A DNA stretch of 64,000 bases, from contig CP089275.1 of the NCBI GenBank assembly GCA_023920165.1, positions 868,001 through 932,000 of the forward strand, given 5' to 3'. This document shows positions 58,964-64,000 of this stretch, piece by piece. A program made the translations under genes and the position numbers. The stretch comes from Curvularia clavata. Its lineage: Eukaryota. The notes under the pieces are model-generated. The model saw nothing but the letters and a program-made list of their open reading frames with translations. It was not told the origin of the DNA and searched no databases. The first letter of the stretch is position 1. Every line of letters starts with the position of its first letter.

Positions 58964-61900
58964 GGCGTGAAAGACGGTTGTCTATGCTCTCCTTTGACAA
59001 GCTCATTTCCCTTGGGCCGTTTCTTGGGCGGCAAGGCAACAATGGCCGCTGCAAGCGGGACTAGTATGGTCCGAGGCCAGATTACGCTTTATTGCCACGG
59101 GTAGAACTTCCCCACTGCACGAAAACGCAAATGTTGTCGACGAGGTGCAAAAATGGCTGATACAAGACGATGAACCCTGTAGACGAGTATTGGAAATAGA
59201 AGCTTCGTCATGTGCTGAGGGGCTTGTGGCAGCCTGACTCGGACCCTGTTTCCATCGGTCAATTTTCTTGTGTGCATGTCTATTCTAGCCAGGTGGGTGG
59301 CGGTGGTGGTCAGCAAGCGTAGCATGTAGCAGGTAGAGACACGGGCGCGCGCCTTTTCTCCACGATCCGCTCCCTCGCACATCGCGCCGGCTGCGCTGCA
59401 CTGCACGTTTATTTCCACTGGTGCATATCTGCTACACGCCCTAGTCCACGAGGCCGTCGTGTGACTGCAGACGAGTAAAGATAATCGTCCGCACCCCGAG
59501 CACAGGGTGATACAGGGTGGGTCGCTTGAGCGCCGCGTCCTACTACCTAGTACTCCGTAGACTACTCCTAACCAACTGTACTACGGCAGTGTAGGCCAGC
59601 ATGTGGCCTTGGCTGTCGAGCCCGGATCGGGATCCAGTGATGCCGTCAGTCGTGGTACGGAGTGGGTAGGTGGGTGGGTGGGTGAGCATGTTGCGCTCGA
59701 CCAAACTTTGGCCCCCATGGTGGAGCGTCAAAGCTATGGAGAGCAGCAAAAGGGTTGGCTGTGAAGACACTAGCCATGACACGGATGCGAACTCTTGGTT
59801 TGGCGCCTGAGGCGATGGCCTGGGCGGAGGACATGCCAACTGTCAAGTGGCATGGCCGTCGACTGCTGTTCCAGAGGTCGAGGCTGGCACCGTTCGCATG
59901 GTTGGTGCAGGGATCGAGGCGGACTCTCCCGTGCGCCGTGCTACGAGTCCCATGATGCACTACTCAGCAACTAGGAGTCGGAGGATGCAAAAGCCCTTTG
60001 GGTCGGTCGTCGTTTGAAGACGTGTGGCCATGGTGGCGCGCATCCCTCCCCCCGCCGGGATTGCGTTGTATGTGGCCTCTTGTTTCAGCTGGACCAAAGC
60101 GTGTAGGCCCTTGTGATACGGGGACGACGCATTGGCCGAGGTTGCAGGCTTAGACATGGTCGTGGGCGCGAGACACGGCCATGGAGATTGAGTTGCACTC
60201 GTTGTCGAGGCGCGTAGTGCGTGGGTGGCTGTTGAGGTGAGGGCAAGGTCAGAAAGCGTGACTGCGGCGCTGGTGGGGCTAGGCCGGGGAGGGCTAGCGC
60301 GGCCAGCGCATCTTCTCACCGCAACTAGGAGATGGCCTATGACGGCGTGCGCCGTCCACATCCAACGTCAAGCCCGTGCTACCATGGGCACATCTGTCAT
60401 TCGACGTGGGTGTCGAGTGGCATGGTCTTTGAGGATCAAAGGGCCAAATGGCCATGGACGGGCTGTGGGCGTCTTGCCCGCCATGCTCGGCTGACATGAC
60501 ATGGCTGTCGCACACTGTTGACGAGATTCCACGTTGCACATGTCTTGACGGGGCTCGCTTCGCGTCGTGCATGGGCATTCTGAGGACTTGTCGTAGGGAA
60601 CAGATGGACGGTGGCCTGGTCTGGGCTTTGCTGTCTGGCTCCCGGTAGACTACCCAGCCAATGGGAGAAGACATGACCAATGCCCAGATGACGGTGGCCG
60701 ACTAGCTCGCACGGCCTACCGTCCGTCTATCCCGCTGAGAGTCGGGCGTATCCCTGTGCTGGCTGGATAGAGAGGCATTTAGCCTGTGGTGGTAACGCCA
60801 TCCATCTATGATATCAGGGCATTTTGTTTACAAATTGGCCAGGCAGGTCGATGCCGTCTCACAGGTCCTGCCCGAAGCATCGAGTGCCGTTGGAAAAAGC
60901 GACGAGGATGACGGCCATTGTCAGCAGCCAGAGGGTGCCGCGGCAGTTGAGCGTGTTTCAGAAGGAACGTGGCTGTCGGGCGGGCAGTGCAGTGCAGTGC
61001 AGGAGCGACCATTTTGCTTCTGCCACCATTTTTTTGTTTGTTCATCTGTTGTCGACCCAATGGCCAGTGTGTGCCGGGCTGACTCGCACAGAGTATGTGC
61101 TGTTCAAGCAGGGCAGGGCAGGGCGAGCGGGAGATTGAGCGCCGACAGCCGACGGCGTGTGTGGTAGAAGGGAGTATGTGTGTTTGAAGCGATAGCAGAA
61201 TGGTAGTGCCCTTGTGGTTCCCTTGTTGGGACGGGCGTGTGAGCAAGCAGTGGTGGGCTCCGCAATTAGACGGACCGGCGCCGCTTAGTCAAGGCGGGCG
61301 CGCACGCGCAGTTTGCAACGACTGTTCCCTATCAATTGAGGGCAGCGGTTTGCCCGCGGTGCGCGTCGAATATCTCCGGGGGCTCTCAGTGGCCCACCGA
61401 TTCAGCCGTGTTATCCCCATCGGGCGGGTAGCCGATGCCTCAGGACGCGACAGAGTGGCAGGAAAAAGTAGGCGCCCGCTAAATTTGGAGCGCGGTACCC
61501 TTGGTGCTGAGGGCGGCCGTGAGAGGACAGAGGGGGTCGGGGGTAGTGGAGTGGGTGGGGGTGAGTGGTGGTGGTAGCAGCCAGGGCCAGTCGTTGGGTG
61601 GTGGATACGACGACGACGAGTTACAGTGGCTACAAGGGCTCTGTCGTGGCCGCGGTGCTGTGGTATAGTGGCGGGCAGGCAGGCTGGGCTGGGCGATGGA
61701 TGGGGAGGCCATGGCAAGGCATGGTATGGTATGGCATGGTATGGCATAGGCAGAGGTTCGCTTGCGTGCATAATCGTCGCGCTATGGGCGGGCAGGCCTG
61801 TCCCTGTCAACCGCACCGGCGGCGGATCAGCCCAGTCAGCAAGCTCCACGGCGGCGTCTGTGCGGGTGGAGCGAAACGGCCTGGGTCTGACGGGATTGGC

Positions 61901-63035
61901 ATGTGGATGCAAGTCGACGGCCGATGTGAATTTAGATTGTGCTCGTGTCGTGTCGTGTCTGTCTGGCTGTAGGGGAGGCAAGGCAGGGCCTGTCCCCAGA
62001 AGATCTCCACCACCCGTGTGTCTAGGGACGGCACTGGGCTGCACAGCACTGAGGGCTGCATTGTTGCCATCGGCCTCGTCGCCAACTGCATTGCCATCTG
62101 CTGCTCGAGCCGCCCGCCGCCGCTGCTGCAAATTCGCTCCGGCCCGTCGACGCAGCAGCAGCAGCTGTTGCTTGCCTGCCCGCCTGCTTGCTTGCTTGCG
62201 TGCGTGCGTGCTTCCCTCGCCAGCCGGGCGGCCAGCCGGGCAGCCAGCCAGCCAGCCCAGGCCCGCGCGCATCGGAACAACTTGGCAGCGACGCCGGGCG
62301 CGGGCAGGGATTGGTCGCGCCTTCTCTTGCGAGCAAGCGGGCAGCAACAGACTGCGGGGCGGGGCGTGCGCTGCTCGCCTGTCCACGGCTGCCCTCTTAG
62401 CTGCGGCCTGCCTGCTGTCGAGCGCTGCAGAGAATCCTGCAGCACTGCCGACGACAACGAACGACTTCGATTCTCCACACCCTCTCCCTCACTCTCGTCG
62501 CCTTTGCACGCAAAAGAAGCCCTCTGCTCGTGAGTACTGCATCCGTATCCATATCCATACCCATACCCATATCCCTCCCCTGCCCACTCCCTCCCCGCCG
62601 GACTCGCCACCTGCGTTTCCCGTGCACCCTCGCCTATCGCTCCTGCGCCCTCTCTGGTTGGGCCACGCCCAGCACTAGCTGCCAAAGTCACATCCCAACC
62701 ACCTCCGCCTCTAAACCTCCGCCTCCCCACCGCAGTCTGCGAAGAAGCCCTTCGCTCGTTCTCTCTGGCTGCACACTCCCCCCCACCCCTTCTACCCCCT
62801 CTCCCCCCCAATAGACTGTCGCTTGTCCCTTTGCACAAAAGCTCCCTGCTCTTCTGCCGCTGCTTCGTCCTCTCCGCGCCGCTGCAGCCTCTCGACTGAC
62901 ACGCGTGTGTCGCGTAGTCTTATTCTTGCACTTGCAGCCGCTATCGCTATCGATACTGCTTGACCCGCATCCCCCCCAAGCGCGACGACGTTACGACTGT
63001 TTACGACAACATTGCTCCCAGACGACCCCAAACAC

Positions 63036-63113
63036 ATGTTTCTGGCATTCGCAGTCCGATTCCGCTATTCTTCCAGGCCGGCTTTTGTCAATTCCCACCT
63101 TTGCGTCTTCTGA
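63036..63113 (+). promoter_or_regulatory. Upstream ORF (25 aa, MFLAFAVRFRYSSRPAFVNSHLCVF*) in the putative stuA leader
   Basis: Only + strand ATG I found between 61927 and 63982; ends at TGA 63111-63113. Confidence 0.55.
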
Positions 63114-63595
63114 TCCCACACCCCCCAAAAAGCATTTGTCGACGACCAGCCCTTCTCTGCTTTACGACTGCAACGACGTAACGACCAGCTTTTCCCCCCT
63201 CCAGCATTGTTTGCAGCGTTCCACTTGATCCAGCAGCTTCCCGCGCCCATAGCCTATTTCTCTCCCCCACATCGGTTCGCAGCCAAGCCATCCTGGTCAG
63301 TATTCCCCCCGAAGCCAACTTCGCTCTCTTCTTGCCTACCTCTGTGCACACCCTCTGCAGCCAATCCACCACCACCTTTGCCTCTGCTAGCAATCAACTA
63401 ACTGGCCCTTCCAGATTATTCGCTCCGCCAACCTCTTGCCGCTACCTGCAGCCACGAGCGAGCCATCATCCTGCCGAACACGCCTGTGTGCAGCTGCGCT
63501 TTCATCTGGACGACTGACTCGGCAATCTTTTCCAAGAAGCGCTCGACGTCCGACCCCAACAACCACATTTTCGACATCCCCTCAATACCGTAAAG

Positions 63596-64000
63596 CTGGA
63601 GCTCCCATCGATCTCGTCGGTCCACGCCCGCGGCCCTGCTGACTCTTGGTACCCATCCCATTACGCACCCAAGCCTGCCACCTCCAGCGAACGTCTACCA
63701 GCCCTGCCCCAGATTCAGTCGCACCCAAGCTCGTCGTCAAGCTCGTCGTCACCTCGCGGTGATTCCATCAGTTCTGGTTCGGTCACTGGCGGAAGCGCCA
63801 GCTCCAATACGTCGTACGCCGCGTCCGTCAACGGGCACACCACCGGCTTCAAGACGCCTTCCCCAAAGCACGCCCCCCAGGACCTCAGGCGAGACTCCCA
63901 CTCCCTCAACGTCCAGTCGGTCCAAAGCTCTCCCTTTGGCTCTCAGGAGGGATACAGTTTTGCTCCCGGCGGCTACAACAGCATGAACCAGATGCAATCG
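63596..64000 (+). CDS. stuA: 5' end of probable APSES transcription factor StuA/Asm-1 (runs off the window); first ATG at 63983, open frame from 63518
   Basis: Frame reads [39 protein letters not shown]. From recall this resembles the N-terminal region and MNQ start of ascomycete StuA proteins. The ~11 kb gene-free upstream region fits. The APSES domain is not visible in the window. Confidence 0.62.

Follow-up and report, generated by a model that had tools for sequence, protein, structure and literature searches.

The window analyzed here is a stretch of 64,000 nucleotides of the Curvularia clavata genome (contig CP089275.1), and at its 3' end, on the + strand, lies the beginning of a gene which, judged by its relatives, is the StuA/APSES orthologue of a Pleosporales-like fungus. 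APSES factors, StuA among them, govern sporulation, sexual development, secondary metabolism and virulence in many moulds and in plant or human pathogens. With the 161-residue frame at the end of the window as a query, 30 proteins were found at E <= 0.01 among 1141 candidates. Every source-named match is of the Dothideomycete APSES/StuA type (Pyrenophora, Periconia, Plenodomus, Didymella, Phyllosticta, Aplosporella and others), and the named relatives are called StuA, cell pattern formation-associated protein or APSES. The gene product of the same genome, the 809 aa model P0002, carries a KilA-N/APSES domain (PF04383, Pfam E 1.2e-09) at residues 307-386. This domain is situated beyond the end of the window, and the part of the gene 3' of the window was read through model P0002 alone. 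The sequence-only reading of this DNA had named the downstream gene as probably stuA, which is borne out both by the domain in P0002 and by the StuA/APSES names of the relatives. The features of the locus are the following:

62439..62529, + strand: leader exon 1, from RNA contigs
62530..62917, + strand: leader intron 1, 388 nt, GT..AG, from RNA contigs; contains no ATG
62918..63295, + strand: leader exon 2, from RNA contigs and sequence
63036..63113, + strand: uORF of 25 codons, MFLAFAVRFRYSSRPAFVNSHLCVF, with its stop TGA at 63111-63113; the only upstream AUG in the leader
63296..63414, + strand: leader intron 2, 119 nt, GT..AG; its branch site resembles CTAAC, and the intron is removed in X1, X5 and X9
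63415..64000, + strand: exon 3, from RNA contigs; includes the upstream in-frame TGA, the proposed CUG start, the putative extension and the canonical AUG
63515..63517, + strand: in-frame TGA, from sequence
63584..63599, + strand: conserved putative initiation context AATACCGTAAAG-CTG-G, with nearly invariant nucleotides across relatives
63596..63598, + strand: proposed CUG start codon, from sequence and relatives
63596..63982, + strand: putative 129-codon N-terminal extension, under purifying selection as protein
63983..64000, + strand: canonical AUG (MNQMQS), the usual start of StuA annotations; the ORF continues past the window end

The TGA at 63515-63517 closes the frame upstream, inside exon 3. 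From 63518 to 64000 the frame is open, and its first in-frame ATG (MNQMQS) is found at 63983, 155 codons past the TGA. Codon 27 of this frame is the CTG at 63596-63598, which stands in the context AAG-CTG-G (position -3 is A 63593, position +4 is G 63599) and precedes ATG 63983 by 387 nt, i.e. 129 codons. Both the AUG-less run of 155 codons and the CTG with these two neighbours had been pointed out in the sequence-only reading, and all of the coordinates were confirmed on the sequence. In this C-rich DNA an open frame by itself is weak evidence, since 186 of 2000 dinucleotide-preserving shuffles of 63518-63982 were also stop-free in the same frame. The depletion of ATG is a much stronger signal: the + strand of 61925-63982 has a single ATG, whereas 500 shuffles averaged 16.9 and never fell below 9, and the opposite strand of the same segment has 29. 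The spliced leader of about 1037 nt likewise holds one ATG (63036), compared with a shuffle mean of 6.8, and one ATG or fewer was obtained in 5 of 2000 shuffles. RNA evidence on the leader covers the part from 62439 onward.

The structure of the transcript was read from four public runs mapped on positions 60000-64000, three of which (X1, X5 and X9) come from three studies, and the fourth (X14) is a metatranscriptome; a repeat at 61705-61751 was passed over in the mapping. In X1, X5 and X9 the contigs skip 62530-62917 and 63296-63414, both GT..AG on the + strand, and are therefore derived from spliced + strand RNA. We infer the RNA nature of these three runs from the spliced joints; the run records are silent on RNA. 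X9 and one X5 contig lack intron 1, which X1 and another X5 contig retain. Simple repeats are present at the start of this intron (CCATA/CCCATA-type units, 62535-62575) and upstream of the transcript start (GCTT/GCGT units, 62170-62215). The 5' ends of the contigs, at 62439 (X1), 62442 (X5) and 62452 (X9), mark the approximate 5' end of the transcript. From 63415 to 64000 the X1, X5 and X9 contigs are continuous, their only joints being 62529/62918 and 63295/63415, and the X14 contig is unbroken over 63410-63637. There is therefore no AUG exon spliced into the frame in these contigs, which drop rare variants and so could miss a minor isoform with such an exon. A CTGAC..AAG acceptor at about 63514-63536, suspected in the sequence-only reading as the entry of an upstream AUG exon, did not hold up, as no RNA contig has a joint there.

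A minor alternative splice or an upstream transcription start could nevertheless provide the extension with a normal AUG, and this is how P0002 and many public models are built. P0002 begins at ATG 60384 and joins 63415 through an intron of about 3 kb. The frame after 63415 meets the TGA at 63515, so the model needs a second intron, at about 63590-63687, and this intron removes the LELPSIS..PATSS block, the most conserved part of the peptide. Neither the junction of the first exon nor the second intron was seen in the RNA contigs, and the annotated N-terminus of P0002 is for this reason probably an artefact. A low-depth X1 contig of 151 nt does cover 60361-60511, and rare isoforms can escape contigs. 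On the other side, the main contigs of the three studies begin at 62439-62452 and have only two leader introns, and in none of the four runs did we find an RNA-supported splice that places an AUG exon in frame ahead of the conserved block. The comparison with relatives also speaks against such an exon, because the N-termini improvised in different models have no mutual similarity, no conserved AG acceptor is present just ahead of the conserved block, and several species have in-frame stops 7-11 codons before the CTG. We consider a spliced AUG very unlikely as the source of the extension.

The single ATG of the spliced leader, at 63036, has a weak context, with C at -3 and T at +4. It aligns in 11 of 11 relatives, which were chosen for carrying a homologous uORF, and the uORF region of these relatives includes the conserved block GCTATTCTTCCAGGCCGGC(A/T)TTTGTCAATT. 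The stop of the uORF varies among them in position (19-27 codons) and the conservation of nucleotides continues past the early stops, and because of this the conservation of the uORF looks to be at the level of nucleotides rather than peptide. TTACGAC/ACGAC repeats flank the uORF in the window (approximately 62984-63010 and 63160-63187), and runs of ACGAC are conserved at both ends of the alignment in relatives.

For the extension itself, a scan of metagenome contigs gave 250 pattern matches, from which 43 loci encoding relatives were confirmed. In seven of them (L018, L031, L032, L040-L043) the MNQM motif is truncated or diverged, and these were read separately. From the nearest upstream stop to the MNQM ATG, all 37 sequences in which that ATG could be located (36 loci and the window) are free of in-frame ATG. 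Codon tests were performed on 23 unique sequences out of the 36 which reach both ends. Over 133 columns the major-allele frequency is 0.868, 0.911 and 0.636 at the first, second and third codon position, respectively. NG86 medians over 242 pairs, with pairs of dS outside 0.05-3 excluded, are 0.215 for dN, 1.308 for dS and 0.16 for dN/dS, and the highest dN/dS is 0.295. The distance from CTG to ATG varies from 363 to 402 nt and is a multiple of three in all 23 sequences, and where Ser, Pro, Thr or Gly is invariant, three or four synonymous codons are in use. A lack of peptide conservation ahead of the AUG had been named in the sequence-only reading as an observation that would speak against translation; the peptide is instead strongly conserved, with substitutions of the coding type. 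The codon-level conservation with dN/dS below 1 that the same reading had expected to begin at a conserved near-cognate codon was also found, its onset lying 4 codons before the CTG.

Conservation of a leader could also be that of an RNA or DNA regulatory element, in which case the region would be untranslated and StuA would be made in its AUG form only. The first 25 codons have a median dS of 0.42 vs. 1.2-1.5 elsewhere, which points to an additional nucleotide-level constraint near the start, and the context block around the CTG is conserved at the level of nucleotides. The leader of the Candida albicans orthologue EFG1 is, moreover, a known regulatory region (PMC6034079). Against an untranslated leader stand the strong three-base periodicity of substitution and the low dN/dS, the fourfold-degenerate Ser, Pro, Thr and Gly codons that vary freely under fixed residues, and the changes in length which keep the frame, open as it is in every species. 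Upstream of the block neither frame nor sequence is conserved, no Rfam family matches 62300-64000 at gathering thresholds, and no stable fold was found. A further argument comes from an out-of-frame ATG situated 74-83 nt before the canonical AUG in 13 of the 23 unique sequences (L011-L013, L015, L016, L022-L025, L027, L034-L036) and absent from the window. It opens an ORF of 25-28 codons that overlaps the canonical AUG, and tolerance of such an ATG is more in keeping with a coding sequence than with a scanned leader. The same ATG suggests that the AUG form is not strongly protected in the species that carry it. An untranslated leader as the whole explanation is extremely improbable in our opinion.

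The lower dS near the start finds no account in RNA structure, either by RNAalifold or by folding of the single sequence. RNAalifold gave -9.03 kcal/mol downstream of the CUG, with a covariation term of -0.07 and a compensatory change in one of 16 pairs. The fold of 63596-63665 has a z of +0.78, and 163 of 200 shuffles fold as well or better. A start-enhancing hairpin downstream of the CUG was considered as a candidate and rejected, neither a stable nor a covarying structure being found there.

The position of the start can be narrowed down from the relatives. The CTG, its A at -3 and its G at +4 occur together in 42 of the 43 loci, L030 being truncated 5' of the site, and in the same 42 the block AAYACCG(T/A)AAAR-CTG-G is nearly invariant in nucleotides. 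All 23 unique sequences have CTG as the proposed start codon, whereas other invariant Leu columns use 4-5 synonymous codons. The surroundings of the canonical AUG (AGC ATG AAC CAG ATG) are invariant as well. Peptide conservation starts abruptly at N-T-(V/E)-K-L-E-L-P-S-I-S, 4 codons ahead of the CTG, and upstream of the conserved block the peptides fail to align across all relatives. Ten loci have upstream in-frame stops close to the CTG: 7 codons before it in L013 and L031, 9 in L041-L043, and 11 in L018, L023, L032, L034 and L035. Between stop and CTG there are zero near-cognate codons in L013 and L031, and the adjacent AAG is the sole one in L034, L035 and L041-L043. In six loci (L013, L024-L027, L031) this AAG is replaced by AAA, which is no near-cognate. 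From the positions of the stops and the replacement of AAG by AAA it follows that CTG is the one near-cognate shared by all 42 loci.

This bears on the possibility that another non-AUG codon nearby, AAG 63593 or the conserved Ile codon ATC 63611, starts the extension, and that the CTG is an ordinary Leu codon. AAG immediately precedes the CTG in most loci, and ATC or ATT is conserved five codons downstream of it. The codons N-T-V/E-K ahead of the CTG are likewise conserved, and the true start could thus lie slightly upstream, although within these codons we found no near-cognate common to all species. An AAG start is opposed by the loci with AAA. As for ATC, the Leu, Pro and Ser codons directly after the CTG vary synonymously while their residues are fixed, a pattern that a start at ATC would leave unexplained; translation therefore begins at or before those codons, which argues against the downstream ATC. 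A start at one of these neighbouring codons is quite unlikely, and CUG 63596 is the preferred start.

In several relatives a segment ..ARLSR.LTR.. further upstream looks like another frame of the window, which is an impression by eye only. Some database proteins have an M start at MS(S/N)ERLP, and these are GTG or CTG codons that gene callers rendered as M (for example P0016 compared with L001, and P0003 with L019).

The extension is not restricted to close relatives of Curvularia. Among 1.84 billion representatives, an extension-only profile matched 32 proteins at E <= 0.001, and a Penicillium-like distant match (P0058) used as a query gave 56 proteins, 40 of them with the LPSIS block. LPSIS-bearing proteins belong to Penicillium, Aspergillus (wentii, turcosus, udagawae, oryzae, awamori, terreus and others), Paracoccidioides, Polytolypa, an Onygenales species and the lichen fungus Sarcosagium. 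Lichen fungi of the Teloschistales and the Lichinomycete Phylliscum came from a second profile search, and the peptide is also conserved in lichen fungi of the Acarosporales. The sequence-only reading had suggested that similar peptides precede StuA in other ascomycetes, and the protein searches show that this holds for Eurotiomycetes, Lecanoromycetes and Lichinomycetes. Sordariomycetes and Leotiomycetes gave no extension-bearing match in searches limited to proteins whose models already include the extension, and their lack of matches is no evidence of absence.

Gene models treat this region in diverse ways. The residues ahead of (T)EKLELPSIS are mutually unrelated among the models, and it is at (T)EKLELPSIS that the models converge; 12 models start instead at the canonical M(AS)MNxxQPYMDVH. 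Five Penicillium StuA models (P0085, P0088, P0089, P0092, P0093) have MRLLHHPSLHLSH.. as a common N-terminus, some 40 residues ahead of LPSIS, which may be either a lineage-specific in-frame AUG or a repeated artefact of prediction. In P0046, P0047, P0050, P0055 and P0057 the conservation reaches further upstream (GHSRPF..NTEKLE) than in Dothideomycetes, and because of that the start may be a different one in their lineage. The closest named match of P0050 is the lichen fungus Lasallia.

The ELPSIS..WY module is also present inside two other, unrelated-looking proteins, P0041 (residues 179-233, BLASTP E 5e-18) and P0043 (residues 340-382, BLASTP E 2e-16). In this second family the module is internal and has the pattern ELPSISxVHxRxPVDxWY..YAP(K/R). 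P0041 has, by eye, a C-terminal GATA-type zinc finger motif. P0043, which stands for a cluster of 15 members, has Met at the position of StuA's CUG, with NTV before it; this fits a StuA peptide beginning Met-Glu-Leu-Pro and is only suggestive. The occurrence in a second family supports the view that ELPSIS..WY is a real peptide module. In StuA the extension is Ser/Pro-rich and has this conserved N-terminal module of the (M/L)ELPSIS type and a conserved G(F/Y)KTPSP site, which looks like a site of proline-directed phosphorylation. No Pfam family was found on the 129-codon extension, and the top score in the ESM Atlas, 0.75 for an ascomycete cluster, is below the useful range. AlphaFold2 on P0007, with an alignment of 34 rows, gave a mean pLDDT of 40.1; even the APSES domain was poorly modelled, hence the model is uninformative on order or disorder of the extension.

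The sequence-only reading had proposed a CUG-initiated form of StuA about 129 aa longer than the AUG form, and the RNA contigs, the conservation of the peptide, the invariant CTG and the identity of the gene as StuA support it. We infer initiation at the CUG to proceed as follows. Ribosomes would scan the spliced, nearly AUG-free stuA leader of about 1 kb, and would bypass the weak-context uORF of 25 codons or reinitiate after it. A fraction of them would then initiate with Met-tRNAi at CUG 63596, in the conserved context AAUACCGUAAAG-CUG-G, and the StuA proteoform made from there would exceed the AUG form by 129 residues. Ribosomes which pass the CUG could start at AUG 63983, so two proteoforms would be possible. 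The extension would most likely have a regulatory or docking role in the transcription factor. Leader scanning followed by initiation at CUG 63596 to give the long StuA, with the AUG form also possible, is in our opinion the best explanation of the locus and one we hold with good confidence.

A broader interpretation is offered tentatively, and we regard it as possible rather than likely: the CUG-started StuA might be the principal form across Dothideomycetes, Eurotiomycetes (including Aspergillus and Penicillium), Lecanoromycetes and Lichinomycetes, and its first 40 residues a portable docking module, (M)ELPSISxVHxRxPVDxWY..YxP(K/R), shared with a second family of regulators that has a GATA zinc finger member. 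If this were the case, three decades of work and most annotations would describe StuA without its conserved N-terminal 129 residues. If the CUG start is true, complementation constructs, tags, deletion boundaries and domain maps based on the AUG would be incomplete, and the inconsistent N-termini of StuA in at least four fungal classes would be artefacts that one rule could correct. The choice between CUG and AUG would then be a testable translational switch of a master developmental regulator, and filamentous fungi, in which few non-AUG starts are documented, would gain a deeply conserved one.

Production of a CUG-initiated long isoform and an AUG-started shorter form from one mRNA is well known from c-Myc and similar animal regulators. 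StuA differs from c-Myc in protein family and in kingdom, and its extension, at 129 aa, is much longer. For the stuA gene of A. nidulans, Wu and Miller reportedly described in 1997 a leader with mini-ORFs as a regulatory region. In the searchable literature, with subscription journals outside the search, we found no report of a non-AUG start of StuA, and the Aspergillus papers found on stuA and uORFs dealt with other matters than a stuA start. For an APSES factor with a non-AUG start the only relevant searchable paper concerns EFG1 and excludes an extension (PMC6034079). The CUG-started long StuA is thus apparently unreported, as far as these searches go, and near-cognate extensions as such are already known from cpc-1 of Neurospora crassa (PMC5487733).

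Conventional annotations of StuA cover the same gene from the same canonical AUG (MNQMQSY.DVH), without the 129 conserved upstream codons. Aspergillus models of 625-655 aa start with MASMNQ, and StuA of Alternaria alternata is described as 631 aa (PMC10715145), which is the size of the AUG form. Public StuA models of 740-850 aa, on the other hand, include the extension only by inventing unrelated N-terminal exons. EFG1 of C. albicans is an orthologous APSES regulator that, like stuA here, has a very long leader: its regulatory 5' UTR is about 1.1 kb long and exerts translational control, and its authors excluded an extended Efg1 because the candidate upstream ORFs terminate within the leader (PMC6034079). 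The upstream frame of StuA, unlike that of EFG1, is open into the main ORF and is conserved as protein.

The closest parallel is cpc-1 with its Pezizomycotina homologues, as described in PMC5487733, the main text of which has no mention of StuA, asm-1 or APSES. In N. crassa cpc-1 the near-cognate starts are conserved and have A at -3 and G at +4; initiation at near-cognates was demonstrated in vitro and in vivo (PMC5487733). Features of the cpc-1 type found in StuA are an AUG-free open frame, purifying selection, a conserved near-cognate at the edge of the conservation and contiguity on the mRNA. Both genes encode a transcription factor behind a long leader with one or more uORFs, and both have an AUG-less in-frame extension which is conserved as well as the main ORF and contains conserved near-cognates (PMC5487733). 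Initiation in cpc-1 was shown by experiment, whereas the CUG start of StuA is proposed here from sequence and RNA contigs. The two also differ in their type, cpc-1 being a bZIP factor with several candidate codons and StuA an APSES factor with a single invariant CUG at the onset of conservation (PMC5487733).
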